DNA of 44,533 bases from Chiloscyllium plagiosum (GCF_004010195.1 NC_057717.1:106594405-106638937); one strand, 5' to 3'. Counted from the first letter of the stretch, positions 143 through 42,989 are shown. Numbers and translations: made by a program. The notes: generated from the sequence alone by a model not told the origin.

Positions 143-840
143 GTAATGGGGAGGTGGTATTATCCCTGGGACATTAATCCCTACTAATGCTCTCACGTGG
201 GTTCAATTCCCATTGCGGCAGTTTAGCAATGTGTAAGCTGGCTGATAACAATCGTCAGAAAGCAGTGGAAGCTGGATCCCAGAATTTTTTCAAAGTGGAG
301 ATTGGCAGACAAGGAGCTTTAGGGGCAGGAGAATCAACGTTTCGGACAAGAGCCTTTCATCAGGAATGAAGGACTCTTGCCTGAAACCTCGATTCTCCTG
401 CTCCTCGGATGCTGCCTGACCTGCTGTGCTTTTCCAGCGCCGCACTCTCGACTGATTTCCAGCATCTGCAGTCCTCACTGTCTCCTAGGAGCTTGAGAGC
501 CACAGGGCAGATAGCAAAATGAAGATGAAACCACACCAGATGGGCTTTGAACTTATTGAAATGTGAGCAGGCTTAAAAGGCCAAATAGCCTATTTCTGCT
601 CCGAGTCCCAATAACACCATCTACCAAGAACCAGCATGAGTTGGTGCAAAAGCCCATCCAGTTCACTCACACCCTTTAAGGAAGGAAATCTGTCCTTACC
701 TGCTGTGGTCCACATGTGAATCCAGACCCATGGTGCCCTCTGAACTGGACCGAGCACATAATCCATTTAAGGGAAGTTCGGGATGGATAAGAAAAACTGG
801 CCCAGCCAGTCGACACCAACACCCTGGGAGTGAAGAAAAA
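143..840 (+). mobile_element. Deu-domain (SacSINE1-like) tRNA-derived SINE, split by later insertions
   Basis: Head at 143-230 has a box-B-like GGTTCAATTCCC. Body at ~640-840 has GTTCACTCAC...TTTAAGGAAGGAAATCTG...CTTACCTG (Deu-like core) and an A-rich end. The interval between holds a decayed CR1 3' end and a PLE end. Confidence 0.55.
325..485. mobile_element. Penelope-like element terminal fragment, fold-back, with hammerhead core
   Basis: Imperfect inverted repeat 325-360 / 366-401. The minus strand at 336-363 reads CTGATGA-AAGGCTCTTGTCC-GAAACGTT. It ends in the recurrent CAGCATCTGCAGTCCTCAC.TCTCC terminus. Confidence 0.75.
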
Positions 841-971
841 AGTAAGATACTGCTCATTCACCTTTCTTATTTCTTACTAGATCTTTCTTGTTTTTTTTTG
901 CAAAGTAGCAACTGCATTTTTTGGCAAAATGTTGACTACAACCCCAAAAATGATTTGAAAAAATACCCGGA

Positions 972-1086
972 AGAACTGCAGATGCTGGAAATCTGAAACA
1001 AAAACAGAAATTGCTGTAAAAACTCAGCATCCAATGAGAGAAATCAGAGTTAATGTTTTGGGTCCAGCGACCCTTCTTCAGAACTG
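972..1086 (-). mobile_element. Short PLE-type terminal repeat (second family) with decayed hammerhead core
   Basis: The minus strand reads AGTT-CTGAAGA-AGGGTCGCTGGACCC-AAAACATT-AACT. Related copies lie at ~9290-9385, ~16866-16968, ~25035-25125, ~38663-38760, ~41865-41970 and ~42590-42815. Confidence 0.65.
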
Positions 1087-1942
1087 TAAATGGTTGCAAA
1101 AATGAAGAACGACAAAAAAGATTTGTTGTTTGTGATATATTCTTTGAAATCTCTTGATGATTGTCTGAGGAATTAATCTGTTTCCTTCCACAGGGACTGA
1201 CAGTGAGGCACAAGAATGCTGTAGTCTACCATGTCAATGATTTCTCTCTCTCCTTCTGTCACGTGTGCTATAGTCATTATATATTAACCAAAATATTTTG
1301 TAATTTGGTTGTGATACTGATTTATTGGATTTAAAATGCTAATTTCCTGAGTAAACATATCCTGCTTGCTGGATCCCCATCTCCTTCCAAATCAGTCCTG
1401 ATAATCAGACAGCTTGAGAATTTGAAATTCCCAAATACCTGCATTTCTACCTAATGAATAGGCAGATTGACACGGCCAGAAGGGTACAAAGGCACACAGG
1501 GCAGTCTGTGCTCCATTAAGAGCTATTATCCCATGCTCTACTGTGGGGAGCTGCAGGCAGTTGGATTGAAGTGTGATGAATCATCGTTTTTATACACTGT
1601 TCACTTTGGGGTTGAATGTCTTGATCTGGTTAACTGGTTGAAAAGGTCAGACTACAACTAAACAATGAGCTCTTGACCATGTTAACCCTTGCAGATCCAG
1701 CGCTTGGCTACTCTTAAAGCATATTCTTCTACAGAAAATAGCAGGTTTTTTTTTTCAAATATCCTACACTTTAATGAAGAACACAGCCTCCAGCTATCAA
1801 TCCCACTATTCACTCAGAAACATTTTTATCCACAGAAATGCAGTAATTAAGAATTGTTGTTGTTTGTTGGTGCTTATTGCTGCTTTACTGTTTGGTAATG
1901 TCTTGTCCTTTGCTTATTGTCTTGCTGTGTGCTTGTGGTCTT

Positions 1943-3549: not shown

Positions 3550-6500
3550 TCTTGCTGTGCACTTGTTGCTTTGTTGTGTGCCTGTCGTTCTGCTGTGTGC
3601 CTGTTGTCTTGCTGTGTGCTTGTTGTCCTGCTGTGTGCCTGTTGTCTTGCTGTATGCTTATTGTCTTGCTGTGTGCTTGTCATCCTGCTGGGGGCTTGTT
3701 ATCTTGCTGTGTACCAGTTGTCTTTTTATGTGTCTGTTGTTTTTATGTGTGTCCGTTGTCTTGCTGTGTGGCTGTTGTCCCGCTGTGTGCTTGTTGTCCC
3801 GCTGTGTGCTTGTTGTCCCGCTGTGTGCTTGTTGTCCAGCTGTGTGATTGTTGTCTTGTGGTGTACCTGCTGTCTTGGTGTGTGCCTGTTTTCTTGCTGT
3901 GTGCTTGTTGTCTTGCTGTGTGCCTGTTGTCTTGCTGTATGCTTGCTGTCTTGCTGTGTGCTTGTTGTCCCGCTGTGTGCTTGTTGTCCAGCTGTGTGAT
4001 TGTTGTCTCGCGGTGTACCTGCTGTCTTGCTGTGTGCCTGCTGTCTTGCTGTATGCTTGTTGTCTTGCTGTATGCTTGTTGTCCCGCTGTGTGCTTGTTG
4101 TCCCGCTGTGTGCTTGTTGTCCAGCTGTGTGCTTGTTGTCCTGCTGTGTGCTTGTTGTCCTGCTGTGTGCTTGTTGACTTGCTGTGTACCTGCTGTCTTG
4201 GTGTGTGCCTGTTTTCTTGCTGTGTGCTTGTTGTCTTGCTGTGTGCCTGTTGTCCTGCTGTGTACTTGTTGTCTTGCTATGTGTTTGTTGTCTTGCTATG
4301 TGTTTGTTGTCTTGCTGTATGCCTGTTGTCTTTCTGTCTGCCTGTTGTCTTGCCTTATGCATGTTGTCTCGCTTTGTGCTTGTTGTCTTGCTGTCTGCCT
4401 GTTTCCTTGATGTGTCCCTGTTGTCTTGCTGTCTGCCTGTTGTCTTGCTGTATGCCTGTTGTCTTTCTGTCTGCCTGTTGTCTTGCCTTATGCATGTTGT
4501 CTCGCTTTGTGCTTGTTGTCTTGCTGTCTGCCTGTTTCCTTGATGTGTCCCTGTTGTCTTGCTGTCTGCCTGTTGTCTTGCTGTATGCCTGTTGTCTTGC
4601 TGTGTACATTGTCTTGCGGTGTGCTTGTTGTCTTGCTGTGTGCCTGTTGTCCTGCTGTGTNNNNNNNNNNNNNNNNNNNNNNNNNNNNNNNNNNNNNNNN
4701 NNNNNNNNNNNNNNNNNNNNNNNNNNNNNNNNNNNNNNNNNNNNNNNNNNNNNNNNNNNNNNNNNNNNNNNNNNNNNNNNNNNNNNNNNNNNNNNNTCTT
4801 GCTGTGTGCCTGTTGTCCAGCTGTGATTGTTGTCCTGCTGTGTACATTATCTTGCTGTGTGCCTGTTGTCCAGCTGTGTGATTGTTGACTTGCAGTGTGC
4901 CTGTTGTCTTGCAGTGTGCCTGTTGTCCTGCTGTGTGCTTGTTGTCCTGCTGTGTACATTGTCTTGCTATGTGCCTGTTGTCTTGCTGTGTGATTGTTGT
5001 ATTGCTGTGTACATTGTCTTGCTGTGTGCCTGTTGTACAGCTGTGTGATTGTTGTCTTGCTGTATGCCTGTTGTCCTGCTGTGTGCCTGTTGTTTTTCTA
5101 TGTGCCTGTTGTCTTGCTGTGTGCTTGTTGTCTTGATTAGTGCTTGTTGTCTTGCTGCGTGCCTGTTGTCTTTATGTGTTCCTGTTTTCTTGTTGTCTGC
5201 CTGTTGTCTTGCTGTGTACATTGTCTTGCTGTGTACATTGTCTTGCTGTGTGCTTGTTGTCTTGCTGTGTGCCTGTTGTCTTGCTGTGTACCTGTTGTCT
5301 TGCTGTGTACATTGTCCTGCTGTGTGCATGTTGTCTTGTTATGTGTCTGTTGTCTTGCTGTGTGCTTGTTGTCTTGTTGTGTACCTTTTGTCCTGCTGTG
5401 TGCCTGTTGTCCTGCTGTGTACCTGTTGTCTTGCTGTGTGCCTGTTGTCCTGCTGTGTATATTGTCTTGCTGTGTGCTTGTCTTATGTGTCTTTTGTCTT
5501 GCTGTGTACATTGTCTTGCTGTGTGCTTGTTTTCCAGCTGTGTGATTGTTGTCTTGCTGTGTGCCTGTTGTCTTGCTATATGCCTGTTGTCTTGCTGTGT
5601 ACATTGTCTTGCTCTGTGCCTGTTGTCCTGCTGTGTGCCTGTTGTGTTGCAGTGTACATTGTCTTGCTGTGTGCTTGTTGTCCTGCTGTGTGCTTGTTGT
5701 CTTGCTGTATGCTGGTTGTCTTGCTGTGTGCTTGTTGTCTTGTCATGTGCTTGTTGTCCTGCTGTGTACCTGTTGTTCTGCTGTGTACATTGTCTTGTTG
5801 TGTGCCTGTTGTCCAGCTGTGATTGTTGTCCTGCTGTGTACGTTGTCTTGCTGTGTGCCTGTTGTCCTGCTGTGTGCATGTTATCTTGTATGCCTGTTGT
5901 CATGCTGTGTATGTTGTCTTGCTGTGTGCCTGTTGTGTTGCTGTGTGCCTGTTGTCCTGCTGTGTGCCTGTTGTGTTGCTGTGTAATTGTTGTCTTGCTG
6001 TGTGCCTGTTGTCCTGCTGTGTGCATGTTGTCTTGTATGCCTGTTGTCCTGCTGTGTACCTGTTGTCTTGCTGTGTGCCTGTTGTCCTGCTGTTGTATAT
6101 TGTCTTGCTGTGTGCCTGTTATTTGCTGTGTTCCTGTTGTCTTGCTGTATGCTTGTTGTCCTGCTGTTGTATATTGTCTTGCTGTGTGCTTGTTGTCTTA
6201 TGTGTCTGTTGTCTTGCTGTGTACCTTGTCTTGCTGTGTGCTGGTTGTCCAGCTGTGTGATTGTTGTCTTGCTGTGTGCCTGTTGTCTTGCTATATGCCT
6301 GTTGTCTTCCTGTGTGATTGTTGTCTTGCTGTGTGCCTGTTGTCCTGCTGTGTGCTTGTTGTCTTGCTGTGTACATTGTCTTGCTCTGTACCTGTTGTCC
6401 AGCTGTGTGCCTGTTGTGTTGCTATGTAATTGTTGTCTTGCTGTGTGCCTGTTGTCCTGCGGTGTACCTGTTGTCCTGCTGTGTGCCTGTTGTCTTGCTG

Positions 6501-8060: not shown

Positions 8061-9386
8061 TCACGTTCCTTTGTTGTCTTGTTCTCAGCTTGCTTCTCCT
8101 ACTCTGCCCAGTTTGAATCCTTTCAATCTAATTCTACCAAGTTTTAGCACCAAAGCTGCTCTGAATCTGTTCACAGCATTTGTTCTATTCTTTTTTGAAG
8201 CAAACCAAAATATTTTGCTCTACCTGTCATGCTATAAGTTGTTAAATGTCAATATCTTCTGTAAATCCCTGAGAATAGATGTGAGTTTAGTTGAGATTAA
8301 TGGAATATAAAGGCTGCCAATGTGGAGAATTCTACTGTGGTACTAATCCATGGAAAATCAAAAATCTCAGATGGAACCTGGCCAATCCCTGACTAAAATA
8401 TAGTTGATACTATTCAGGTACCTGATCTTACCCAGAAATGCAAAGATTTTATCTTTGACTTTCATAGCTACAAAGCAGCTGCATTATAGATTACAGATGT
8501 TCGCACATATAGATAGCAACATTTATAAGGCTAAGTACGGATACATGTACACGCGTGTCCACAATAACAGACAGCCATTAATGTTAGTACTTAATGTTCG
8601 TTTAGGATAAAGAGAAGGGAGGCTGATAAACTCTTGAAATCATTTGAAAATGATGACACTTTTGCTCTGATAAACAAGTTCCTAAAGAGAGGCTTCAGCA
8701 TTGCACACTTTATCACATAAGACAGCTTTGACCTGGTTCTCCTGAACTCAGTGCCAATTGGTTGCCTCCCACGCAGATTTCTGACATAAGACATCAGCTG
8801 TACCCCATCACTTAAAGAGAAGCAGATGCTGTGTGTTTTAGGTTGGGGATTGGTCAGACTGGAATGAAGGAATGGTGTTTATGTGGGCAACAGTTTGACT
8901 GTTTGCAGCTTTATCCTGTCTTCGTAGCTTGGAACAGAAATTGAGACACTGGGAAAGAACAAGAATGGAAGAGAAAGGAAAGAAACACTAGGACAGGAAG
9001 CAGGGTGAGAGAAATAAAAACAAGGTAAGAGAGCTATAACATGAAAGACATAGAAAAAAAAAAGAAAAAAAACTAAAAGGAGAAATTTATAAATGGAAGG
9101 AGAGAGAGTGACATGAGTGTGAGTGAAAAGCAAAACAACAGCCGGAACCCAACAATTTCCCATAAGCAATTGTTCAAGATAAGCAAGTAACTAATTTCCT
9201 TGATGAGGTTTCTTCATCCTTGTTCTTTGGGATTCAAGATTGCTGGAGAATTCATGGTGTTGAAATCATGACTCAACTGCCTGACACAAAGACAAAAATT
9301 GCTGGAAAAGCTCAGTATGTCAGGCAGTGTCTGTGGAGAGAAACCAGAGTTAACGTTTTGGGTCCAGAGATCCTTCCTCAGGACTG

Positions 9387-9775
9387 CCTGACACCCAATC
9401 CACAGACTCATTACTGGCTTACACCAAATACACAGCCAAAACTGTCCTTGACACCCAACTCACAGTCCCAACACTATCTCAGACCCAACCCACAGTCCCA
9501 ACTCTGCTTGACACCCAGTACACAGTCAAAACTCAACATGGCACCCAATCCAAGACAAAACACTGCATGGCACCCAAAACACAGCCCCAAAACTGCCTGA
9601 TCCCCATAAGACCATAACATATTGGAGCAAATTAGACCATATGGCTCATTGAATCTGCTCCACCATTTGATCATGGCTGATCCAAAGCTATCTGACTCCC
9701 ATTTCCAACACTATCTAACCCCCATTCCATAGTCCCAACACTCCCCGACACTCAATCCACAGTCCCAATCTACTG
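9387..9775. repeat. Degenerate ~30-bp minisatellite (…TGACACCCAATCCACAGTCCCAACACT…) interrupted by a CR1 tail
   Basis: About 7 units to ~9605, then a minus-strand CR1 3' end (CATAAGACCATAACATTGGAGC, ~9606-9700), then about 2 more units. Confidence 0.75.
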
Positions 9776-14489: not shown

Positions 14490-15540
14490 TATGTTGGACT
14501 CCAAAGTAGACCAGCAGGAGGCTGGGAGAACACAGCAAGCCAGGCAGCATCAGCAGGGGCAGAAGTCAACATTTCAGGGGGAACCCTTCTTCAGGACTGG
14601 GGATGGGCGGAGCTGCAGATAAGGGGAGTGGTGGGTGCAGGGTGGTGAAGTGGGGATAGGTGAAGACAGGTAAAGGGCACAACCTGGTTGGTCAATGGAG
14701 GAATGATCTGAAAATGTGTTGCTGGAAAAGCGCAGCAGGTCAGGCAGCATCCAAGGAACAGGAGAATCGACGTTTCGGGCATAAGCCCTTCTTCAGTCCT
14801 CACTTTCTCCTCAATGGAGGAATGAATCCGGTTGGTGGCAGGGAACAGTGGAAGGAAGGGAGAGGAAGTTGGGGGATAGGGAGGGAGGTTATTTGAAATT
14901 GGACAATTCAATGGTTGAGTCCTCCAAGCTGTAGACTGCCCAGGTAGAAAAGGTGGGAAAGGGGATTAAAATGGGCAGTGACTGGGACGTCAGGTCAGCC
15001 CCTGCAGGCTTATGCAAAACCTGCTGGTACCCCACACCCCCTCACCTCCATCCAGGGCCCCAAACAGTCCTTCCAGGTGAGACCAAGGTTCACCTGCCTC
15101 TCTTCCGACCTTGTTTACTGCATCAGGTGCTCCCGATGTGGTCCTTTTCTGGCATGACCATCCTTGGTCTCCTTCATTACCACAATGATCCAAACCACAA
15201 ATTGGAGGAACAACATCTCCTGGGCATCCTGCAGCCCAGGGGGCTAATCGTTGAGTTCTCCAATTTCAATTAACCACCCTTCCCATCCCCCGACTCTCTG
15301 CCCAGCCCCTTCCCATCCCTTCCACTGCTCCCTGCCACCAACTAGATGCATTCCTCCCTTCGACAAACCAGGTCGTACCCTCTACCTGTCTTCACCTATC
15401 CCCACTTCACCACCCTGCACCCGCCACCCCCGTTATCTGCAGCTCCCCCCACACCCACCCCCAGATCTGAAGAAGGGTTACACTCCATCTCCTGATGCTG
15501 CCTGGCTTGCTGTGTTCTTCCAGCCTCCTGCTTGTCTACC
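14490..15540. mobile_element. Penelope-like element remnant with inverted (head-to-head) ends
   Basis: 14506-14960 is the reverse complement of the 3' part of 15020-15539 (GTAGAC.AGCAGGAGGCTGG ... CCAGCCTCCTGCTTGTCTAC). GIY-YIG C-terminal remnant ILGLLHY..KLEEQHLLGILQPRGL..EF. Confidence 0.85.
14707..14810. mobile_element. 104-bp PLE-derived mini-insertion with 15-bp TSD and intact hammerhead core
   Basis: TSD TCAATGGAGGAATGA at 14692-14706 and 14811-14825. The minus strand at 14769-14796 reads CTGAAGAAGGGCTTATGCCCGAAACGTC. Confidence 0.9.
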
Positions 15541-16199
15541 TCAGCTGTGTTAGGGCAGTACTGGTTGGTGTCTCATCAATTTTCCTGTCTAATACTAAAT
15601 TCCAATTGTTCAATTTGCAACTTTTGAATTATTCCTGATTCCAGCTTTAGTTTTTTTGGAGGGTGCGGAGGCAGTGCTGATCAGGACCTTTTACAAATCT
15701 TTTGAGTGAGATGAGTTGGAGTTAAAATGCCTGGGTTGAAGAGTCTGAGGTGATGAAGAGGTTAAATAATCCTCTTGCACGCAACAATGTGAACTTTAAC
15801 ATCTTCACATAGCTGACAGCAACTTGGAAAACAGAATTGCCAAGATGAAGCAATTATTTATGCGTGGGCGTACAAATTGTTTCAGTTTAAGGCCTCATGA
15901 GATCAGCCCCTTGAGAGGGTGCTCAGATTAAAATAAAGACAGCCATGTTTCTGGCTGCTTGCCAACACATGCCCAGAATCACTTTTATTTTAATTATTTC
16001 CAGTGTTTGTAAGACAAAGAGAGAGAGAGAGATTTGCTGAGATCGATTGAGTGCTTTTGAGGAAGCACTTTGCTTCCTCAGAACACAGATCATCCAGGAT
16101 TTCCTGTCTGGAATCTAATCCAGTGAAGTTGCTGGAAAGTGCACACTTGCAAGTGATTGTTGATATGAGATTGCACTCAGCTGCAGTCATCTGCAACAG

Positions 16200-16257: not shown

Positions 16258-17784
16258 GTTCTGGATAGTGACCAGAATCTCTAACGTTCAACAACTTAAG
16301 GAAAGCAAAGTATTGATTTTAAGTAAAATAATTCTGAACAGCATGACAGAATTGTTACAGCACAGTTTAATTACCACAGCTTGCAAAGGCAGGAGGTTAA
16401 ATTCAAAACTGAGCTGTAGAAACTAGGGCTCTGCTGTTATTTAGGTGTGGATTTTATAAGGGGAGATGACTAATTCCTTAAATACTGTGCAGGTTTAAGA
16501 ACAGTGTGCTATTTATTTAAAGCAGATATCCTGTCTGTAACTAGATCGGGGCAGAGGGTAAAGTGCTCACCAGTCCTGGCTAGGCAGAGAAGATAAACTT
16601 GATGGACTGGAAGGAAACACTCCTGTTTGCTTAATTCACAAGCAGTGCTGGAAATACACTTACTTTCCTCATAAATCCCTTCAGTTGCTGGGATTCCTGA
16701 GGATTTGGAAATGTGACTTTTTAATGTTAGGTTGAATCTGAGGCACACAGGCCTTCTGGAAGCAACTCAGTTGCCTATTTTCGCCATTTGTGTTATCCAG
16801 CCTTCAGCTGTTGAAACTGGAACCGGGCAAGTTGAAGTCAACGTCAGACCATCAGGACACACTTGAAACAAAAACTGAAATTGCTGGAGAAATTCAGCAG
16901 GTCTGGCAGTACCTGTGGAGAGAAAAACCGAGTTAACGTTTCAGGTTCAGTGATCCCTATTCAGAACTGGATATATTATAATTTCATAATTTCATGTTAT
17001 TCTTTGAGAAGTTACATCATGAAATCTGATGCAGAATATTGATCAACAATTTTCAATACCAGCCATCTGGGCTCAGATCGATTCTGTGTTGTGCACGTTC
17101 TGTCTGTCATGGCTCCATTTGCCTACACAAAGACACCGGAAAATGTGGAACAGGCACTTCTAAGTATTCCTGTTGTAAGGAAGCAGCTTCTGTTTTATTT
17201 TGTTAAATGTAAGTTGTTGTCATGTCCTACTCAAAGATCAGTTCTGTTCCTGGAATTATTTGGCATAAAGTAGTTTGTTTATAACTAATAAGATTGTGCA
17301 TCATCATGTTCAGACATCTGTACTCATAGAGTTGCACTTTCTGTGTATGAGTGAAGAACTGAACACTCTTCCCAACTGACTTCTCATAGAGTCATCCAGC
17401 ATAGAAACAGGCCCCTTGGCCCACCATTTCGATGCCCACCAACAAATACCAAACTGTATGAATCCCATGTGCCTGCACATGATCAGCAACTTACTTTGCC
17501 GTGGCATTTTATAAATTCTTCCAAATGCTTCTTAAATATTGCAAGAGTATCGGCCTCCACCACCCTCTCAGGCAGCACCTTCCATATTTCTACCACCCAC
17601 TGGGGGAAAAATGTTTCTTTAGATTCTCTCTAACTGCTTACTCCTCGCCTTAGACTTATGTCCTCTGGTCTTAGCTATGTCTTCCATGGGAAAAAGATTC
17701 CCATGATTTACCCGATCTATGTCTCTCAATTTTGTATACTGCAGTCAGATCCTCCCTTGGCCTCCTCTGCTCTGAGGAAAACAA

Positions 17785-18084
17785 GAATAAAGTGAGGAAT
17801 GCAGATGCTGGAGAGTCCGAGTCAAAAAGTGTGGCATTCACCAGGATGTTCTATGTTTCCTAGAATAGAAACTCTCAGTTATGAGGAGAGACTGGACAGG
17901 CTGAGTTTGTGTTCCTCAGAGTTGAAAAGTGTGGCACTGGAAAAGCACAGCAGGTCAGGGAGCATCTGAGAAGCAGGAAAGTCGACGTTTTGGGCATGAC
18001 GAAGGGCTTATGCTGAAACGTCGGCTCTCCTGCTCCTCAGATGTTGCCCGACCTGCTGTGCTTTTCCAGTGCCACACTTTTCAA
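17785..18084. mobile_element. Fold-back PLE end insertion inside CR1
   Basis: Near-TSD CTCTGAGGAAAACAA (17770-17784) / CTCTGAGGAACACAA (18085-18099). Inverted PLE termini are centred at ~18003. Confidence 0.85.
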
Positions 18085-19680
18085 CTCTGAGGAACACAAA
18101 CTCAGCCTGTCCAGTCTCTCCTCATAACTGAGAGTTTCTATTCTAGGAAACATAGAACATCCTGGTGAATCTCCCCTGTATCTTCTCCAGTGCAATTGTA
18201 TCCTTCTGAGAGTGTGGCGATCAGAACTGCACATCCGTGGCCTAACCAATGTTTTATGAAGTTGTAACGAGACTTTCTTGTTCTGATATTCTACATCCTG
18301 GCTAATGAAGGCAGACATCCCTATGCCTTCTTCACCATCTTACCTTGCTGGAGTGACACTTTCAGGGATCTATGGACTTGCTCACCAAGATCCCTTTGTT
18401 CCTCAGTACAGTACTCCCTAGGGACCTACGATTCGTTGTGTAAATCCTTCCATTATTAGATCTCCCAAACTGCATTACCTCACACTTATTGAGATTAAAT
18501 TCCATCTGCCATTCCTCTGCCCAATTTACCAGCTGATCAATATTTGACTGTAGCCTGAGACCACCCTCCTCACTGTCAACAACACTAACAGTTTTCGTGT
18601 CATCTGCAAACTTACTAATTATACCTTGTACATTCACATCCAAGTCATTAATGTACATAACAAACAGCATTGCTTCCTGTGGTACACCGCTGGTCACAAG
18701 CTTCCAATCACAAAGACATCTTTCTGCCATCATCCTTTGCCTTCCATTTGCAAGCTAATGTTGGATCCCGTTTGTCAACTTGCCTTCGTGCTCATGGGCT
18801 CTTACGTTTTGGACCAGCCTTCCATGTAGAATCTTGTCAAAGGCCTTACGGACGTCCATGTAAACTAACTCAACTACACTCTCCATATCAATATATTTAA
18901 TCTTTTCAAAAAAAACTCAATTAAATTAGTCAGGATCTCCTTCCAACAAATCCGTGCTGACTATCCCTGATTAATCCCTGCTTTTCCAAGTTAATCCTGT
19001 CCGTCCAATGTTTTTCCAACAATTTCCCTCCCACTACTGTCAGACTATCTGCTCTGTAATTACCTGGCATATCCTTGCTGCCCTTCTTGAACACAATAGT
19101 GATCCTCCAGTCATCTGGCACTTCACCTGTGGCCAGTGGAGTATTAAATATCTCCGGCAGGGCTCCTTTATCTCCAATAGCAGCCTGGAATATATCCTGG
19201 GATTTATGCACTATTGTGCCTACTAAAACATTTGATATCTCCGCCTTATTAATCTTAACATGGTCTAGAACCTCACCATCCCAAATGAAATTTCTAGCTA
19301 CAATATATTTCTCCTCTGTGAATACAGATAAGAACTATTCATTTAAGACCTCACCCATGCCCTCTGGCTCCATACACAGGTTGCCCCTTTGGTCTCTAAT
19401 AGGCTCCACTCTTTCCTGGGTTTTTCTCTTGCTCTTAATATACCTAAAAATGCCTTAGGGTTTTTCATAATCCTCTCTGCCAAAGGTATTTTGTGGGCCC
19501 TTTTAATTTCTTTTTTAAGAACCCCATACACGCTGTATATTCTGAAGGGCCTCCTGTGTTTTTATGCTCTGTACCTGACATATATCTCATTCATTTTCTT
19601 TATCAAACTCTTGTTCGGCTTTGACACCTAGTGTTTGCTGGATAGCTGTCCTTCCCCTTCACTCTTCAAGGAACATGCTG

Positions 19681-20362
19681 GGAGAAAGTGAGGACTGCAG
19701 ATGCTGGAGATCAGAGTCAAAAGGTGTGATGCTGGAAAAATACCGCAGGTCAGGTAGTAAGAGTAGGAGAGTTGATGTTTCGAGCATTAGGAATGTGGGG
19801 GACCCAAGGGGGCTGAGAGATAATGGGAGGGTATGGGGCTGGGGGGAAGCTGGGAGTTTGATAAGTAGGTAAAGGTGGGGGTGAAGGTAATAAGTCACAG
19901 AGGAGGGTGGAGCGGATAGGTGGGAAGGAAGATGGACAGGTGGCATGGTTTAAGAGGATCGTGCCGAGTTGCAAGGTTGGATCTGGGATAAGGTGGGGGG
20001 GTGGGGAGAGGGTAAATGAGGAAACTGGTGAAATCCACATTGATCCCATGTGGTTGGAGGGTCCCAAGACAGACGATGAAGTGTTCTTCCTCCAGATGGC
20101 GGGTGGTTACAATCTGGCAGTGGAGAAGGCCCAGGGCTTTCATGTCCTTGGCGGAGTGGGAGAGGGGAGTTAAAGTGTTTAGCACACGGCGGTGGGATTG
20201 TTTAGTGTGTGTGTCCCATAGATGTTCCCTGAAATGTTCCGCGAGTTGGTGTCCTGTCTCCCCAATGTACAGGATAACACACCAAGAGCAACAGACACAG
20301 CAGATGATGTTTGTGGAGGTACAGGTAAATCTCTGTCGGATGTGGAAGGATCCTTTGGGGCC
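19681..20362 (-). mobile_element. Penelope-like element 3' part (GIY-YIG endonuclease remnant)
   Basis: Minus-strand HSAKDMKALGLLHCQIVTTRHLEEEHFIVCLGTLQPHGINVDF, homologous to 30165-30815. Terminus GGAGAAAGTGAGGACTGCAGATGCTGG. Confidence 0.9.
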
Positions 20363-20658
20363 TGCTGGCCTTGAACTCTTGCTATTCCATTTTTAAGACT
20401 CCTACTTTCTAATTATAGTTCTAATTAAGTTTCTGCTCCCAGTCTGTGTTTGCCTAATCCTGTCTAATGATATTGAAATTGGCCTTCCTTTAATTTAGAT
20501 ACAACTTCTGCACTATCCTTATCTCTTCCCATAAGGACATTGAAACTTACAGAGTTATGGTCACTATCCCCAAAGCGCTCACCCAAGGACACTTCAACTA
20601 CTTGACTGGCTTCTTTCCTTTGCATTAGGTCTAACATTTCCTCATGTTTCTTTTAAAG

Positions 20659-24302: not shown

Positions 24303-25647
24303 GTAAGAATTCTTGAAATCATTTACTTTAAGAAAAGCTTTTTTTTATCCTGGAACATACGGTAATGCTTCAGTCATTCAGCTCCGTGTTCTTCACTGAC
24401 TGGAAAAAGGATTACACTCAGTTCAGTATCTGTTTTTCTCTGTCTCTGAGAGAATGAAGTATTTCATAGACAAAGCTCTACACTGCCTGCACATGCTCAA
24501 ACAAGCATGATACTGCCTTGATGGGCAGTGCCACTACCCTTGGACACACCTGAACTGTATTCACCGTAACTAACAATATATTAATCTGCAGCAGCCAAGG
24601 AGAGTCACAATTAAAATCTGAAAAAGTTAGCCTACAGGAGAGGACAACGTAGATGTGTTGAATGACAGAGGTAATTTGGGGTCAGGAAATAAATGCATAA
24701 AGCAATGTCAAGAATAAATGCCCTCTCTAACATGCCCAATAGGATCATCTTTATTTGATTTATAATAATGATTACATGACAGTGGAAAGTATTCTCTTTG
24801 ATGTTAATGCTAAGTTCCGAATCCCACATAAGTTATTTCACATCTCAAGCTTATTCTTTGTTCTCTCAACGTATTGAGATCATGGCTGGTCTGTAGCCGA
24901 ACTGCTTATTTGCTCCAGGTCTCTTGGTAACTCAGCTGAATCAAAACCCTAACATAAAAAGGAAGGTTATATTAAGAAAGAACTTAGTTGTTTACGTGTG
25001 GAACAACTTACTGCAACCATCAGAACTAACATTCGAAAGAAGATTCATACCGAACTCAAAATGTTAACTCTGTTTCTGTCTCTACAGATGCTGCTAGACT
25101 TGCTGACCTGATTTCTCCAGCATTTGTATCAGAATTACTGTTCCTTATCAACCAGAGAATCACTGACTTAGGAACTCACTGTGTGGGTCAGATTCAATTC
25201 CTGACAAGGAATGATGCTACAAATTAGAAGATGCTGGAAAAGCAGTTTTTATTGGACAGTAACTGGAAAGAGAAATTACTTCCTTTGTAGATACTTCATT
25301 CTATAAATATTCTCCTCGTAATGTTGGTTTCTATCTCAATCCTGACCAGCCACTGATCTCTTCACAGACTGAAACTTTGCGAAACATTTTGCTGTTTTTA
25401 TTTCTGTATCAGATGGCTAATATTAAAACCTGAAATCAGGGTTAAAACCTGTAGCTGACATTTTTACCTCTGCTGGTTCAAGTCACCTGCTGCTACTGAT
25501 AATGGCTAACCAGTCTCTACTGCCCATTATTCACCATCCAATCTGAACTGAGTGAATGTTTGTTTGGAATCCGAAGCTGTTAAGATTCATTCAAAACTGG
25601 ACCTCACCTATAGACAGGTAACTTAATGTACAGCCTCTACTTTTCAG

Positions 25648-25868
25648 TGTTGAAAAGTGTGGCGCTGGAAAAGCACAGCAGGTCAGGCAGCATCTGAGGA
25701 ACAGCAAAATCGATATTTCGGGCATAAGCCCTTCATCAGGAATGATGAAAGGCTTATGCCCAAAACGTCAACTCTCCTGCTCCTCAGATGCTGCCTGACC
25801 TGCTGTGCTTTTCCAGCGCCACACGTTTCGACTCTGACTCTCCTGCATCTACAATCCTCACTTTCTCC
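25648..25868. mobile_element. Fold-back PLE end insertion with hammerhead core
   Basis: ~90-bp imperfect inverted arms centred at ~25740. The minus strand at 25712-25739 reads CTGATGAAGGGCTTATGCCCGAAATATC. A decayed flanking duplication GCCTCTA..TTTCA is present. Confidence 0.85.
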
Positions 25869-26534
25869 TCGCCTCTAAGTTTCAATTAAGTTACCCACAA
25901 CACCCTCCCCACTAGAATGGAAATTCGCAAGTGAAATGTTCTCACGTATGCTGAAACCTTATTTCCCAAAAAGAGTTGGGTGTACACTTGAAAAGGACAT
26001 TACTGAGCACTGGCTCTGCAGTTGGTTCCTGCAACTTCTAGAGCGTCCTATACTCTGTAAAGTATGGCAAAGTGGAGGCCAGGAGCCAAGTTTACACCTA
26101 TTAATGTTTGCTCATATTGACAGGGAACACCTTCAAGCAAGACTTCTCTTGAGTCTTATTAGACCTGGAATTTCCTTCGGATAACCTTTCTGTGCCAAAG
26201 TAGCACAGTCTTCCCAGAGATAAAGTGTAAGTGTCTATTTTACAATCTGTACAGTCAGGGTTTCTAATTCATATATGTGTCAACATTTGTATTAGCATCA
26301 CTGTCCTGTATTCATGTTGCTAGTTTGAGTGTTTTGTGGTTTAATAACCAATTGGATTATATTGTAGGAAGAGATTATTTAATCAGATTCCAGGTCAAGA
26401 ACAATTTGTGGCCAGAACACAGTTTTGGAAGAAGTGGATGTAGCAGAATGCAACACAGGAAGGATCACCACCCAACTAAAAAACCTTGAATGTTTAGACA
26501 GAAGGCCATGATCAGGTTCTCTTTACTGATTATC

Positions 26535-26985: not shown

Positions 26986-27116
26986 CATTCCTGATGAAGG
27001 GCTTATGTCTGAAATGTCAACTCTCCTGCTCCTCAGATGCTGCCTGACCTGCTGTGCTTTTCCAGTGCCACACTTTTCAACTTTGATCTCCAGCATCTGC
27101 AATCCTCACTTTCTCC
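26986..27116 (+). mobile_element. PLE 3' terminal fragment
   Basis: CTGATGAAGGGCTTATGTCTGAAATGTC…CAGCATCTGCAATCCTCACTTTCTCC. Confidence 0.85.
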
Positions 27117-28778
27117 CAGATGGAATATAACAAATCATTCATCTCCCAGGTGAGGATGGATGAACTGACTCCTCTTTATTTACCCACCCTCTGGATGGTC
27201 ACAACAAGGTTAATGTAAAAAGATCCCTTCAATTTTGATATCTTTCTCCCAGACCAAATGAATTTATGTTTTTAAAGGAGCCAATTTAGTCAGAATTTCT
27301 TGAGTTAGCAAAACAGTGAGTTTTATTGATTAGTAAACATGAGAAGAAATAATAACACAGCAGATTAGGAATATGAAATTAGTCCAAAATAAATAAAAGT
27401 GTTAAAAAAAAGATAAACATGTCAGTCTCATTTGTGAAGAGAAGATAGTAGAACATTGTGGCCATTACATTGGGTACATGTAGAGGTTACTTTGGTAGTT
27501 AAACAGACAATTTTGAGATTATTGATTTTGCAGGTTGACTAAAATTCTTCAATCCTGATTGATTTCGGCCTTGATGGCTGGCTGGCAGCATTCGTAATGA
27601 GAAACCATTTTTCCTTTCTTCACTTCCAGTACAGGGGTATTTAATGGCTGTTCTCAAGTTGTGACCTGCACAGCAGTATAATCCACATATCAGGTATCAG
27701 ACATTAAAACATACAGACCGGTGGCTTTAGGGAATTTTTAGCTGTGTTTATGCATATCCCTGGAAGGGTAACATCTAAAGATGTCTGTGGGAGACAGTGG
27801 GGTAGTCTGTCTCTCGTTATCTTTTCCTTAGCAGCAAATTTAGTATTCCATTTTTAAAAACATGCATGTTGGAATGATAAGCTCACATGTCCATAGCTGA
27901 TCCCAAGGTTATGACACTTGTTTATTGGATTCAGATTCCTCCTTGTGAGCAAATCTGTTTCTGATTTTTGAATTTTAAATAGCTTCACAGCAAAATCCCT
28001 CAAACATATTATCATTACTTACCCTGTGAACACTGCGAGATTTAACAATGAATTTAGTCAAATTCGCTAATTCATTAAATGGACGAAGTTTTAAACAATT
28101 CTGCAGTTAATTATTTTAGTAATTTAAAGATTTGTTTGCCATGAGAAAAGACATTTGGATAGGAATACATGAATAGGAGAGATTTGAAGGGATATGAGCC
28201 AGGAGCAGGTAGGTGGAACTAGTTAGTTTGCGATTATGGTCAGCATGGACTTGGCTGCACTTGCTATATGATCAATTACTCTATAAGTAAACAGGTTCAT
28301 TCATAACTGATCACATAAATCATGCATTGGTGATATAGAGAGAGAGTTCAGGCTGCTGACAGCTTATTGAACACACCATAGAAAAGAGTCATCCAGATTC
28401 AAGGGTCCCCAAATCCATCTCTGCTATGAACACAATGAATTAAGCTCAGCCACTAATATCAATCTCTTAACAGTTACAAAGTATTGTAGATGCAGGAGAC
28501 ATTGTTAGTTGACAGTATCCGTGGAAAAAGGAAGGGTCTGATTCTCTCTCCACAAATGGTGTGCAGTGTTTCCTGCATTTTCCATTTTTGTCCTTCAACA
28601 TTCTCAGCAAAATGCTGATTTTAAAAAAAATAAAAATGCTGGAAACATGCAGCAAATTAGGCAGTACTTATTGAAAATGTTGTAAATGGTCAATGATACA
28701 AACTGACAGCCTTTTTTTAAGCCCATGAAGTAGTGTTACACTTTCAGAAACCAAACTAGATTAACCAAATAAATAAGA

Positions 28779-29106: not shown

Positions 29107-29354
29107 TAAAATTGTGTGGGGTGAGAGTAGTCCAAGTTGGGTTGTGAGTCCTGTTTGACTCATCTCACACACTGAACTCACACGGCCAGCCAGAAGCTCT
29201 TCCCATTCTTAGTAGAAGCTGCATCCACATCCAGGTTTGTCTTGGAACTGCTTCTCCTGTTTTCTACTACTGCCTGGTGACTTCCTCACCTGAATCAGGT
29301 GATACCCTGCAAGGGTTGTGATTAGCTCTTGTCTCAGATCTTTCCTGAGGACAT

Positions 29355-30043: not shown

Positions 30044-30159
30044 TTGTGATTAGTAATAAATGCTGATCCATAACCCCTAGTTTAAAATTAATTTAAGAAG
30101 CTCAGTAAAGCTTTCATTTGCAGTCACACATTAAAGATCACATTATCAATTCAAAATCT

Positions 30160-30815
30160 ATCCTGCAGAGATCTTCCTGCACATCCAAACACTTAATCTA
30201 TTGTGTCCATTGCTCTCAATGTGGTCTCCGCTACACTGGGGAGACAGGACGCCAACTCCCGGAACATTTCAGGGAACATCTCTGGGACACACACACACTC
30301 CGTGGCCGACCACTTCAACTCCCCCTCCCACTCTGCCAAGGAAATGCAACCCCTGGGCCTCCTCTACCGTCAAATCCAAGCCAGGAGGAAGAATGCCTCA
30401 TCTTCTGCCTTGGCACCCTCCAACCACACGGCATCAACATCAACTTCACCAGGTTCCTCATTTCCCTTCCACTCACCTCAACCCAGATCCAACCCTCCAA
30501 CTCGGCACCGCCCTCTTGAACTGTCCTACGTGTCCATCTTCCTTCCCACCGATCCGCTCCACCCTCCACTCCAAGCTATTCACCTGCATCTACCTATCAC
30601 CTTCCCAGCTACCTTTCCCCCATTCCCACTCTCCTAATTATCTTTCAGCTGCCTTCACCTCCCCGACCCCTCCTCCCATCCTCACATTCCTGACGAAGAG
30701 TTTATGCCTGAAACATTGACTCTCCTGCTTCTCAGATGCTGCCTGACTTGCTGTGCTTTTCTAGCACTATACTCTTTGACTCTGATCTCCAGCATCTGCA
30801 GTCCTCACTGTCTCT
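30160..30815 (+). mobile_element. Penelope-like element 3' part (GIY-YIG domain)
   Basis: SCTSKHLIYCVHCSQCGLRYTGETGRQLPEHFREHL (GIY-YIG with CxxC), decayed hammerhead CTGACGA…GAAAC at 30690, and the standard terminus. Confidence 0.92.
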
Positions 30816-31186
30816 CAATAATCAAAACATTCAACTGACTCATGTATGAAACAGGTGAGACATATGATGGTCACCATCTGAACACACCTGACTAACTAAC
30901 TTTACGGATACACAGCATTTTAAAACAAGCCTGAGGTCTGGTACAACTCAGTGCAGTGTCTGATAAATGCACACTGTATAGAGTGTGAAACGGCTAATTG
31001 TTATCTGAGGCTGTGTCTGGAAGCATGTCCAGCAATGTTAAAGATTTGGTGGGAGCAGCTTTCAATCTGTTATTACTATTCTCCCTGCTTCTTGATTCTA
31101 CTCTTTACCAAAGTACTCCAACCAACTATGGTTCTCGTGAAACCATTGCTGTGACACAGGTCTGCATCCAACTTCCACAAAAATAC

Positions 31187-35282: not shown

Positions 35283-35284
35283 TA

Positions 35285-36289: not shown

Positions 36290-36504
36290 CAGTTGTGGGT
36301 GCTACGTCCAAGGAAGATGTGCTGGCATTAAAGAGTGTCCAGATGGAGGTTCATAAGAAGATAGAAAGGCTTGTCATAGGAGGTTTACTGGAGGATTCTG
36401 GGTCTGTACTTGATGGAGTTTAGCAAAATGAGGAGAACCTGATCGAAACTATCAGAATATTGAGATGCTTGGAAAAAGTGGAGATGATGTCTCCATTAGA
36501 AGAA
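36290..36504 (+). mobile_element. Old CR1 3' coding fragment
   Basis: GGAAGATGTGCTGGCATT..GTCCAG..GAGGTTCA, similar to 10910-11110. Confidence 0.75.
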
Positions 36505-37539
36505 GCCGGTCGAGGTCAGAGAGTGGTGGTAGATGGTAAATATTCAGCCTGGAGCCCAGTTACAAGTGGAGTTCCGCAGGGATCAGTTCTGGGTCCTCTG
36601 CTGTTCGTAATTTTTATTAATGACTTGGATGAGGGAGTCGAAGGGTGGGTCAGTAAATTTGCAGATGATACGAAGATTGGTGGAGTTGTGGATAGTGAGG
36701 AGGGCTGTTGTCGGCTGCAGAGGGACTTAGATATGATGCAGAGTTGGGCTGAGGAGTGGCAGATGGAGTTCAACCCTGCCAAGTGTGAGGTTGTGCATTT
36801 TGGAAGGACAAATAAGAATGCGGAATACAGGGTTAACGGTAGGGTTCTTAGTGAGGTGGAGGAAGAGAGGGATCTTGGGGTCTATGTTCATAGGTCTTTG
36901 AAAGTTGCCACTCAGGTGGATAGAGCTTGTCAGAAGGCCTATGGTGTATTAGCGTTCATTAGCAGAGGGATTGAATTCAAGAGTCATGAAGTGATGTTGC
37001 AACTCAACAGAATTTTGGTTAGGCCACATTTGGAGTACTGTGTGGAGTTCTGGTCGCCTCACTTTAGGAAAGATGTGGAAGCTTTGGAGAGGGTGCAGAG
37101 AAGATTTACCAGGATGTTGCCTGGAATGGAGAGGAAGTCGTACGAGGATAGGTTGAGAGTTCTCGGCCTTTTCTCGTTGGAACGGCGAAGGATGAGGGGT
37201 GACTTGATAGGGGTTTATAAGATGATCAGAGGAATAGATAGAGTAGACAGTCAGAAACTTTTTCCCCGGGTACAACAGAGTGTTACAAGGGGACATAAAT
37301 TTAAGGTGAAGGGTGGAAGGTATAGGGGAGATGTCAGGGGTGGGTTCTTTACCCAGAGAGTGGTGGGGGCATGGAATGCGCTGCCCGTGGGAGTGGTAGA
37401 GTCGGAATCATTGGCGACCTTTAAGCGGCATTTGGATAGGTACATGGATGGGTACTTAATCTAGGTTAGAAGTTCGGCACAACATCGTGGGCCGAAGGGC
37501 CTGTTCTGTGCTGTATTGTTCTATGTTCTATGTTCTATG
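36505..37539 (+). mobile_element. Young 5'-truncated CR1 LINE (uninterrupted RT C-terminal ORF)
   Basis: Stop-free to 37464: VTSGVPQGSVLGPLLFVIFINDLD..SKFADDTK..LVRPHLEYC. Tail (TTCTATG)x3. Confidence 0.97.
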
Positions 37540-37544
37540 ACCTA

Positions 37545-38153: not shown

Positions 38154-38650
38154 CCTGATTATATTCCAGCCGAGCGCTTCAAAGCTAATGAGCTTTTGCT
38201 CACCCTTCGACTCTGCGCACTCTTCTTGTAAGGATTTGTAAGGAAAATGAACTCCTTCTGACTTCATGAAGGTGACCACTATAACTATCTCCAAAAAGGG
38301 AGATAAACCACATTGTGGAAACTTTCGAGATGTTTCTCTGTTGTCCAAAACAGAGAAAATCTTGTCCATTTTCCTGAATCACCTTCTTCCTGTAGTTCAG
38401 GAAATCCTCCCACAGACACAGTATGGGCTTTAAACTCTCCAGAGGAACCTCTGACATAGCCTTTGTCACCAGACAAAACAAGAAAAACTTCAGAAATGCT
38501 TCAGTGGGTTCACTGAACTGAGCAGTAAATTGTGAGACTCTGTGGATTGTGCTTCAAAGTTTCAGGTGTCCACAAAACATTATCATAATCCTGAAGGCAC
38601 TTCTTAATGATGTGACTGCAAACACCTTGGGTGGAAGATGTGAAACAGAT
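38154..38650 (+). mobile_element. RTE-clade LINE, RT N-terminal region
   Basis: PDYIPAERFK…TISKKGDKPHCGNFRDVSLLSKTEKILSIFLNHLLPVVQEILPQTQYG…RGTSDIAFVTRQ. Confidence 0.8.
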
Positions 38651-38871
38651 GCGTTAAAAATCTTAAACAGAAATTGCTGGAAAAACTCTTCAGGTCTGGC
38701 AGGTCTGGCAAACAAATCAGAGTTAACATTTCAGGTCCAGTGGCACTTCTTCAGAACTGAGAGTAGTTAAGAAATTGTTGGTGTGTATACAGAAGATGGG
38801 GTGTTGGGAGGGGGGAGAAGAATCAGGAGGTGGGTTACTCATCACAGTATCCTAGTCTCTGAGCTATTGTA

Positions 38872-40399: not shown

Positions 40400-40635
40400 T
40401 GAAATAACTCCAAGAAGACTGGTATCTCATCACTAACTCACCCTTTATTTACATGTGCATAGTATATAACACTGACCCAATGAGCTTAGAGCTGACTCCC
40501 AAAGTGAGCAGAACCCCTGACACTCCTGTTTATACCTGTCAGCCAGGGCTCCCCAATTGGTCCAGGTTAACATCCCCAATCAGGGAATTCATTTTCTATG
40601 AGATCCACTTGACTGACCTCATTCCAATCACTTCG
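40400..40635 (-). mobile_element. Solo LTR (236 bp) with 5-bp TSD
   Basis: GTGTC at 40395-40399 and 40636-40640. The minus strand has TATAAA then AATAAA and ends TTATTTCA. The 5' TG is mutated. Confidence 0.8.
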
Positions 40636-41043
40636 GTGTCAGCTGAGAAACCCTCGGTATCCGTACGCTGCAGGTAATAGAACAAGTACACTCTCTTTGC
40701 TGCAAGCCAATCACAATCGAAAGGAAGCAGGAAGCAACTTACCCACAAAGGTAACATGTTGAAACAGCACTATCAAGCCGCACTTGCTCAGCAATAACCT
40801 GCTCAGTGACATCCAGTTTGGGTTCTGCCAGGACTACTCAGCTCCTGACCTCATTACAGCCATGGAGTGTTGGCCTACTAACATCAGTGTTACCAGTATC
40901 ACCAATGGTCTCAATGTCTCATCTTCTGCTGTTCCTGGAACTCTGATACTGATCTGTACATATTTTTAAATGTTATCTTTTTCAGACTCGCCTCCTGTTT
41001 TGAATCTGTTACTATTTTCTATCCTGGTTAATAACTAATAAAC

Positions 41044-41385
41044 AGTAGGGAGGAGGGACTTGGGGGAGGGGCGTTGGAAATGCGATAGGTGGAAAGAGGT
41101 TAAGGTGAGGGTGAAAAGGTGAGGGTGATAGGCCGGCCTATCACCTTCACCTTATCACCCTCACCTTAACCTCCTTCCACCTATCGCATTTCCAACGCCC
41201 CTCCCCCAAGTCCCTCCTCCCTACCTTTATCTTAGCCTGCTTGGCACACTTTCCTCGTTCCTGAAGAAGGGCTCATGCCCGAAACGTCGATTCTCCTGCT
41301 GCTTGGATGCTGCCTGACCTGCTGCGCTTTTCCAGCAACACATTTTCAACTCTGATCTCCAGCATCTGCAGACCTCACTTTCTCC
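41044..41385 (+). mobile_element. Young PLE-derived insertion: 180-bp palindrome plus hammerhead core plus terminus, 15-bp TSD
   Basis: TSD TAATAACTAATAAAC at 41029-41043 and 41386-41400. Palindrome 41045-41224. CTGAAGAAGGGCTCATGCCCGAAACGTC at 41261-41288. Confidence 0.93.
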
Positions 41386-42989
41386 TAATAACTAATAAAC
41401 CACTCTTTTGTTCATTTAAGAAAGCTGGTAAAATTGCCCCTTTTAAAACATCAATTACTTTGGTGAGGGAGAATTAGATTCACGAGCAAGAGATCCTTTG
41501 AAATTTAACCAACTGAAGGGGCAGTTGAAGAAAGAAGGGGAGCGAGTACAGTAACTTACCGATGAGGTATCCTGCCTGGAACCAGAACAAACAGAGAAAC
41601 TTCACCAAGGGATAGGGCAGAACCTCACAATCCTGAGCAGATGGCACCCTCAAATCAAGGATCAGCCTCTGATGATATTGGCACTGACAGGTTTGGAACA
41701 GCAGGTCACCTGCTCTGGCACAGCTTTTGTCTGTCTTTTTCTTCACTTGCCCCCACACCATTCTCGACAGCTCTGGAAAAATATCCCTTCTCCCATTCAA
41801 TCTCTTTGTCTTACTGACCTTTCACTGACCTTCTCTTTGTCTTCATTCCAAACAGCCCTTTTACGTCCTGATGAAAGCTCACTAGCCTGAAACTCAGCTA
41901 GCTTGGCTTCTCCCTTTACAGATGCTGCTTAATATTTCTCAGCATTTTCTGTTTTAATTTCAGATTTCCTGAGATACCATGCTTCATATTGCCACATACA
42001 ACCTTTGTTTGACAAAACAAGTGTCTATCAGATGATTTTCCATTTCTCAGTCTCTCAGCTGGTCACGGGTTAAAAATTGAGGTTAAGTGTAGCATTTAAA
42101 ATTCTGTAATATTCTGAATTAGCTGCATTTTGGAAAATGTGGGTGAATCAGAGAGGCAGCTGTAGAAATGTCATTTTTTCCCAGAAACCATATCAGTACA
42201 GGTAATAGCTTTCCAGGAAATGTGGGCTGTAGTTTTTAAAAATCCCCTTATCAAAGGATAGCGGACTTGTGTTCTGAGTGTTGCAATGTTCACCACAGAG
42301 TCTCACCCACACTGTCTGCTTTCAGTATTTGGGAGCTTCAGTTCAGTCACAGTCTACTTTAAGGCAGACATCTGGAAAGATATGAATGAATTAAAACTGA
42401 AAGCCATTCCAGTCGTGGTTTGCTTTATCCTTCACTATGTTTTCACGTACTCAATGCAAACGCTGGCAGTAGTACACTGTCATAGAGATTTAAAACAGTA
42501 CCAACTCTCATTTTATAAACTCGATGAAAGACTCATGTTCAGTGAAAGGTCGTAATAAGATTGGGAAGGTTTATGAGAGATTGATGCAAAAGTAAAATAC
42601 TGTGGATGCTGGAAATCTGAAATATTATTTTTAAATGCTGGAACTCAGCAGATCTGGCAGGATTTCTGGAGGAAGAATTTACTTTGCCTTTCATAACTTC
42701 AGGTTTAACGGCCACTGACATGAAAGCTCACTGACATTTTAACTGACAAATGTTAACCTTGTTTCTCTCTTCATCGATACTGCATGATCTGCTGAGCTTC
42801 TCCAGCAGTTTTTGGTCTTATGAAAGATTGGATCACACAAAGACAGTGCAGCAAATTAAATAAAATAGTTCTATACTCCATCAACAATGTACCCTATCAT
42901 TAACCTTATCCCAACCACTTAATCTCCCTACTTCCTGGGTTTTGAGTAACCACAACTAGAAAAAGGATGTGCTACTTTGGTTTTTATAT

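Follow-up and report, generated by a model that had tools for sequence, protein, structure and literature searches.

The locus described here raises the question of what the short repeats with a hammerhead-like core are, how they came to be scattered along it, and whether they cut the RNA in which they lie. It is a stretch of 44,533 nucleotides from the shark Chiloscyllium plagiosum (GCF_004010195.1 NC_057717.1:106594405-106638937), referred to below, at its full length, as the window. An initial annotation, made from the sequence alone, had ascribed the repeats to two families of Penelope-like elements (PLEs) carrying minimal hammerhead ribozymes (min-HHRs) and had suggested that intact copies could cleave transcripts running through them. 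The observation and its principal interpretation were found to be correct, the motif being a known PLE motif that is present here mostly in worn-out tail-end copies. With high probability, the repeats derive from the 3' ends of endonuclease-positive PLEs, as copies that are already dead or are dying; they carry the min-HHR and fall into three or more related families that differ in age.

Minimal hammerhead motifs and their conservation

The features of metazoan PLE min-HHRs published by Cervera and de la Pena (PMC4209133) comprise two core boxes, an unpaired base between A9 and position 10.1, a G10.1-C11.1 pair, a palindromic 15.2-16.2 stretch without loop III, and a short helix I. The shark motif shares the first four of them and likewise has a short helix I, whose fit to the published length varies between families, in agreement with its description as a minimal type I hammerhead. 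A strict descriptor was built from these features, requiring both boxes, a helix II of at least 4 bp with G10.1-C11.1, a Watson-Crick 15.2-16.2 pair, U16.1, and H17, with helix I left free. It was applied to 335 kb, consisting of the window, 29 targeted loci, and 200 kb from arbitrary genome positions.

In total, 35 matches were obtained, and none were found in 30 dinucleotide shuffles; the unpaired base between A9 and 10.1 was required in every match (35/35). Six matches lay in the 200 kb from arbitrary positions. The CUGANGA box, GC hairpin, and GAAAC-GUH combination was recognized at 14 window sites, three of which passed the strict descriptor: 41261-41288(+), 14769-14796(-), and 25712-25739(-).

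All motifs cited in the initial annotation were present, on the strands it had assigned to them. Its division into intact and decayed cores was only partly retained. The cores at 41261(+) and 14769(-) are intact, whereas the motif at 336-363(-) keeps both boxes, has an A.C mismatch at 10.1-11.1 and a G.U pair, and fails the strict descriptor. Decay was evident at 26991, 30690, 1052, ~9350, ~16933, and ~38722, but the motif at 25712(-), which had been listed with them, passed the strict descriptor, since its palindrome was retained in the change from ACGU to AUAU. At 41868(+), GAAAC is not followed by GUH and stem II is poor, and the reading of this site as a decayed hammerhead was not confirmed. 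A clean stem I (AGUU/AACU), attributed to the second family, was found in three of its four window copies (1052, 16935, and 38725) but not in the copy at 9352, which has AGUC.

The exact pattern CTGANGA-N(6-30)-GAAAC matched seven times in the window, compared to 0.89 expected, and none of 100 shuffles reached this number. Five of these matches fall inside the repeat families, while those at 23289(-) and 35371(+) are isolated and chance-like. The excess thus counts copies of related repeats, not independent events. A loosened 28-nt pattern (up to three mismatches) gave 11 matches in the window versus 6.2 expected; 5 of 100 shuffles reached 11, which is not significant alone, and 7 of the 11 matches were family copies.

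Conservation of the stems was evaluated on an alignment of 91 motif-bearing copies (86 distinct rows), filtered for the motif but not on 10.1-11.1. In the distinct rows, paired cells amounted to 91.2%, 86.0%, and 52.8% for helix II, the helix III palindrome, and helix I, respectively. The whole structure was 71.4% paired, compared to at most 41.4% with the partners slid, and 0 of 500 shuffles matched the observed pairing or covariation score. At 10.1-11.1, the 85 lettered rows comprised 59 with G-C, 17 with G-U, and 9 unpaired, the G-U rows being due to CpG decay of C11.1.

Compensatory change between families, the check proposed in the initial annotation, was observed in both stems I and II, mostly as a few lineage splits. 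Pair 10.4-11.4 is C-G in 64 rows (family A) and U-A in 9 (family B), pair 1.1-2.1 is C-G in 54 rows and U-A in 9, and pair 10.2-11.2 is G-C in 73 rows and A-U in 4. One A subfamily has a U-A pair in place of the U.U mismatch of helix I, which brings this helix to 4/4 pairs, and a 4-bp helix I is likewise present in family B. The palindrome is ACGU in families A and B and AGCU in the family of locus L037. The copies decay neutrally after insertion, so the subfamily masters represent the real level for testing covariation.

The motif in L037 (3810-3838, minus strand) belongs to an unrelated third min-HHR family, in which the layout is unchanged but helix II (5 bp) has other letters and helix I has 3 bp; it is represented by a single copy in the sample.

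Element linkage, insertion anatomy, and abundance

The assignment of the repeats to PLE ends was borne out by remnants of the GIY-YIG endonuclease at 20045-20362(-), 30151-30568(+), and 15038-15351(+), each of them followed directly by a tail copy on the same strand. The same arrangement was observed in longer genomic copies: 13 of 30 young loci fetched from the genome (L001-L030) extend further upstream and reach the PLE 3' region and the endonuclease frame. The motif itself is located ~240 nt downstream of the endonuclease frame and 61 or 97 nt upstream of two alternative 3' ends.

Positions 1017-1334 of L018 align to residues 826-899, the C-terminal GIY-YIG part, of protein P0004 with 46% identity (E = 3e-20). 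This nearest full-length homologue has 902 aa, with RVT_1 at 394-575 and GIY-YIG at 806-886; the nearest named relatives are uncharacterized bamboo-shark proteins with 85% and 66% identity. For the reverse transcriptase (RT) piece of L005, at least 29,275 first-look candidates were obtained in the genome, and all 150 scored ones had E <= 1.3e-39. P0004 carries a C-x4-C-x2-C linker motif before its endonuclease, which, according to PMC8557442, goes with Neptune and Nematis and not with Penelope/Poseidon; the clade assignment of the shark PLE is tentative.

In L005, L006, L007, L011, L015, L017, L020, and L025, the sequence turns into runs of N within the PLE coding part or a short way upstream of it. 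A frame starting with an ATG ~25 nt past the predicted cut (window 41313-41385) is open to the element 3' end in families A and B, and two of the three differences there are third-position; the PLE reading frame may begin here, as it does in the Anolis element.

Insertion anatomy was read from the same 30 young loci. Young copies have a fixed 3' end, no poly(A), and variable 5' ends, with all 30 direct arms ending at +97 relative to C17, a limit imposed by the query. An adjacent head-to-head inverted arm was present in 16 of the 30 loci, and 12 of these 16 arms end between +58 and +68, that is, at a tail-less end. The difference between the two ends means that an extension of ~36 nt (the "tail") is carried at one insertion end only. 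Both young copies in the window are flanked by 15-bp target duplications, and no partial tandem copies forming pseudo-long terminal repeats were seen in the window. According to PMC8557442, a PLE insertion is 5'-truncated and adjoined by an inverted copy that is likewise shortened at its 5' end; a tail of 30-40 bp is often borne by one end only, and the target duplications are variable. The shark copies agree with this anatomy of endonuclease-positive PLE insertions.

Judging from published work on PLEs, such structures would arise when the PLE protein nicks both DNA strands and reverse transcription starts at two internal RNA sites ~36 nt apart. The copies expected from this process would be 5'-truncated with a constant 3' end, could bear the tail at one end, and would often include an inverted arm joined head-to-head. 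An identical head-to-head junction occurs near locus position 1500 in L004, L013, L014, and L027, with AACG/CGTT assignable to either arm. This junction, shared by 4 of 30 loci, might be explained by snap-back of the cDNA 3' end on the AACG/CGTT derived from the helix III palindrome, or else by the spread of a hairpin-shaped master.

The abundance of the repeats was determined by BLAST with six window copies. The window contains 21 fragments from ~17 insertions, and 57 fragments were found in the 200 kb from arbitrary positions, i.e., one per 3.5 kb. The density of about one copy per 4 kb stated in the initial annotation therefore holds both in the window and elsewhere in the genome, and its remark that coding parts are often missing applies to ~14 of the ~17 insertions. 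The number of families, on the other hand, had been set too low. Family A has young and older subfamilies, and family B is represented in the window by four copies, all on the minus strand. The window further contains a diverged family of greater age, with copies at 14521(-) and 15480(+), as well as the single element at 41868.

At least 1587 first-look candidates of the young family were obtained in the 3.56-Gb genome, and the 40 scored ones were 95-100% identical to the window copy. Scaling from 57 fragments and 6 strict motifs in 200 kb, which leaves a wide Poisson range, suggests that the genome contains ~10^6 fragments, with intact motifs numbering on the order of 10^5. Sequencing runs under four different organism codes hold at least half of the sampled words of 41135-41390, and the young family or its close relatives seem to be common to several labelled species.

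The CpG bias of decay, already pointed out in the initial annotation, was confirmed: 64 of 432 CpG cells were changed (14.8%), 59 of them by C>T or G>A, compared to 195 of 2158 cells elsewhere (9.0%). In these 72 distinct family-A rows, the rate of change at CpG positions of the motif was 1.6 times that at the others. The rows had been pre-filtered to at most two box changes, so that decay is understated.

Among the individual copies, the young family-A insertion at 41044..41385(+) consists of an inverted arm (~41044-41134) and a direct arm (41135-41385) between 15-bp target duplications at 41029-41043 and 41386-41400; Rfam microRNA-hairpin models match its inverted junction below threshold only. 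Its strict-intact motif at 41261..41288(+), with a predicted cut between 41288 (C17) and 41289, has C-G, U-A, U.U, and G.U in helix I. The second young family-A insertion, 14707..14810(-), is composed of a tail-less arm and 15 nt of an inverted tail end, with target duplications at 14692-14706 and 14811-14825. The core of its motif (14769..14796, minus strand) is intact, and junction sequence replaces the native 5' strand of helix I. This copy is nested in the minus-strand arm of an old diverged PLE head-to-head long pair with approximate limits 14500..15545, in which the plus arm holds the remnant 15038-15351 and has its motif deleted, while a degenerate motif remains at 14568-14594(-).

Older family-A head-to-head pairs are located at 323..486, 25644..25869, and 17789..18090. 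The first contains motif 336-363(-) with a weakened stem II and has an 11-bp target duplication with one mismatch (312-322 and 487-497). The second combines the strict motif 25712-25739(-) with AUAU and a decayed one at 25742-25769(+), in which C3 and G12 are lost, and the third, which is complex, carries motif 17996-18022(+) without C3. An older family-A copy at 26988..27120(+) has a decayed motif (26991-27018) altered in stem II and at 15.2. Two longer older copies consist of a GIY-YIG remnant followed by the tail: 30151..30820(+), with remnant 30151-30568 and a decayed motif at 30690-30717, and 19678..20362(-), with remnant 20045-20362, where an internal deletion took most of the motif stem II.

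The family-B copies span 975..1130, 9270..9400, 16864..16969, and 38650..38790, all on the minus strand. The motif of the first, 1052-1081(-), has stem I AGUU/AACU and a 5-bp stem II and has lost G12 and G16.2; those of the others, 9352-9381(-), 16935-16964(-), and 38725-38754(-), are decayed, the motif at 16935 in the G8 and A9 region and in stem II. A lone related repeat lies at 41840..41980(+), with a motif-like stretch at 41868-41896 that has no GUH and was not confirmed as a hammerhead.

Several other features were recorded in the window. A reading frame at 36424-37464(+) matches RVT_1 (E = 8e-16) and was considered as a PLE coding part, but it was rejected on its best BLASTP match to P0004 (E = 0.36) and assigned to another retroelement. 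A piece of an AP-type endonuclease is found at 43791-44393(+) (E = 3.5e-18), and 29115-29429(-) is a full-length match to nuclear RNase P RNA (RF00009; 99.2 bits versus a gathering score of 28, E = 2.2e-27, model positions 1-301). A 19-nt minisatellite with ~238 copies and 79% matches, open in all six frames, extends over 3550-8021 and includes a run of 136 N at 4661-4796.

Cleavage of local transcripts and rival explanations

Cleavage of passing transcripts by intact copies, as suggested in the initial annotation, was not supported. The monomer has no helix III because ACGU forms no loop; the helix requires another copy that is oriented alike. Each of the three strict window motifs is impaired: in 14769(-), junction sequence stands in for the helix I partner, 25712(-) is an arm of the pair 25644-25869 and is buried in the hairpin that it forms with its antisense copy (-78.8 kcal/mol, z -15), and 41261(+) has no intact same-strand partner nearby. 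The pair 323-486 also forms a hairpin (-57.8 kcal/mol, z -8.5). Intact same-strand pairs less than 5 kb apart were found once in 335 kb (L030, 348 nt), and no RNA ends were observed at the predicted cut, which is weak evidence given the library type.

In the X22 RNA run, 1584 reads match the young family on both strands, 95% of them continue into unlike flanks, and ends do not pile up anywhere; these reads show only that many copies sit inside other transcripts. A second RNA run, X23, gave no matching reads. Cleavage of min-HHR dimers was reported by Lunse, Weinberg and Breaker, according to PMC6765202. The activity is low even for dimers (PMC4209133) and protein-dependent in Anolis (PMC11167929). 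Since the window copies are monomers or head-to-head pairs and mostly mutated, they are not expected to cut host transcripts, and cleavage of local transcripts is unlikely. The hammerhead, having no helix III of its own, would pair its palindromic ACGU only with that of another copy oriented the same way, and the cut after C17 (between GUC and G) would take place only in multimeric element transcripts, probably only with the help of the element protein.

A number of results weigh against the interpretation of the repeats as PLE ends with a min-HHR. The rows of the alignment were chosen by a motif filter, and one extra row was on the wrong strand. Much of the covariation is one A/B split, with few independent events. 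In the main young family, which accounts for 27 of the 35 strict matches, helix I has only two contiguous pairs (3/4); with published lengths of ~4-5 bp, and 2 bp in Drosophila virilis (PMC4209133), it is inside the published range but weak. Monomer folds did not exceed shuffles in stability (z = +0.30 and -0.55).

The hammerhead scan proposed in the initial annotation gave three strict window motifs with the descriptor but no match with Rfam hammerhead models, either in the window at gathering score and at E <= 10 or in an 851-nt slice at E <= 10; the shark motifs are not members of the canonical hammerhead families as modelled in Rfam. Pfam did not report GIY-YIG in the remnants themselves and was blank for window 19895-20392(-), and RVT_1 in L005 reached only E = 0.048. 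The single frame with RT and GIY-YIG expected of such elements was represented by remnants, and coding parts read N in several loci. RNA reads cross the predicted cut 41288/41289 with no pile-up of ends, in a single-cell polyA library ill-suited to such ends. Finally, PLE insertion in vitro is unaffected by hammerhead mutants, and clades without the hammerhead proliferate well (PMC11167929 and PMC8557442).

The rival that survives best, considered possible but on balance unlikely, is that the ~130-nt unit is a short non-autonomous retroposon, a discrete RNA that would start a few bases upstream of the hammerhead, either at a promoter of its own or through processing, and be copied to its 5' end by the PLE enzyme. 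It overlaps with the origin from PLE tails, and both can hold. Direct arms start between -30 and -33 relative to C17 (window 41255-41258) in 14 of 30 loci and between -37 and -40 in three more, the inner end of 8 of 16 inverted arms lies at -25 to -31, and read and contig depth rises ~3.6-fold at 41255. The clustered starts and the depth step point to a discrete RNA 5' end, whether by transcription start, run-off, or a retroposon. However, run-off at the 5' end of the PLE transcript gives the same picture, 13 of the 30 loci continue upstream into the PLE, and no Pol III-type head related to tRNA, 5S, or 7SL was detected by Rfam in the window. A reading as a short interspersed element (SINE) was rejected on the same absence of tRNA, 5S, and 7SL matches in the window.

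A further step, which we regard as doubtful, would be to take the ~130-nt unit, starting 3-6 nt upstream of the CUGA box, as a hammerhead-headed RNA with the RT start region, i.e., a SINE-like parasite of PLEs copied in trans. If this were true, the ~10^5 intact min-HHRs and ~10^6 fragments would be the largest hammerhead load reported in a vertebrate, and same-strand copies in one intron could cleave host pre-mRNA as dimers.

The hammerhead likeness could also be non-catalytic, the stretch being kept for recognition by the PLE protein or as a border of the reading frame, with stems serving for protein binding only. The low or protein-dependent activity of PLE hammerheads and the indifference of insertion to mutants (PMC4209133 and PMC11167929), the weak helix I of the main family, the missing RNA ends at the cut in the single-cell polyA run, and the open frame from the ATG 25 nt past the cut in families A and B, with its predominantly third-position differences, are all compatible with such a role. 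It is nevertheless quite improbable: all hammerhead core positions are kept across three families with differing stems, and in Anolis, C3 and G8 mutants abolish cutting while the double mutant restores it partly (PMC11167929).

Miniature inverted-repeat DNA transposons or microRNA-type hairpin genes, brought to mind by the long and very stable hairpins of the head-to-head copies (-57.8 and -78.8 kcal/mol, z = -8.5 and -15) and by weak sub-threshold matches to microRNA hairpin models, were rejected as almost certainly wrong, as the arms are unequal with the 36-nt tail on one only, the same sequence also occurs as single arms and joined to the PLE frame, the target duplications are long and variable (11-15 bp), and every microRNA match is far below its gathering score.

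Comparison with known systems and significance

The preferred explanation, namely PLE tails with a min-HHR, was compared with the systems described so far. Besides the structural features, the shark repeats share with metazoan PLE min-HHRs (PMC4209133) the terminal location in PLEs, the many dispersed single motifs, and the opposite-strand pairs. They differ in helix II, which has 4-5 bp in the shark versus the 6-8 bp stressed for trematodes and Drosophila, and in the host, as sharks are not named in that paper. Their density looks far higher, with 6 strict motifs per 200 kb against ~4,000 and ~9,000 per genome in coelacanth and Xenopus, respectively, although the descriptors differ and the sample here is small. 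Canonical type I hammerheads in Rfam have the same core letters and type I topology, whereas the shark motif is without an intramolecular helix III.

PAc, the Poseidon-type PLE of Anolis carolinensis studied by Frangieh et al. 2024 (PMC11167929), is similar in having a hammerhead shortly upstream of two internal RT start sites, whose spacing equals the 30-40-bp tail. The head-to-head arms in the shark are consistent with the way PAc acts on DNA, cutting and extending each of the two strands. The distance from the cut site to the 3' ends is 85-92 nt in PAc, as derived from the published figures, versus 61 and 97 nt in the shark; PAc was characterized biochemically, whereas the shark family is known here from sequence.

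Non-LTR retrozymes, according to PMC7229834 and the preprint by Li et al. 2026 (10.64898/2026.07.22.740005), are likewise non-coding, with type I hammerheads related to PLE terminal repeats, and the preprint mentions them in one sampled chondrichthyan. They form head-to-tail tandem arrays that yield circular RNAs; the shark window differs in this respect, no head-to-tail hammerhead array having been detected in it by Tandem Repeats Finder. An expansion of PLEs has been reported in the whale shark (10.1101/443036 and PMC8455134). In our literature search, which covered papers without their supplements, no paper describing shark min-HHR families as such was found.

No new kind of ribozyme or element is revealed by these results. 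They carry a warning for annotation, as Rfam hammerhead models miss the motifs and head-to-head copies mimic microRNA hairpins. The insertions illustrate, in clean natural form, the PLE "tail" and the head-to-head products predicted by recent biochemistry, and PLE-borne minimal hammerheads are extended to a shark genome, where their density is seemingly very high.

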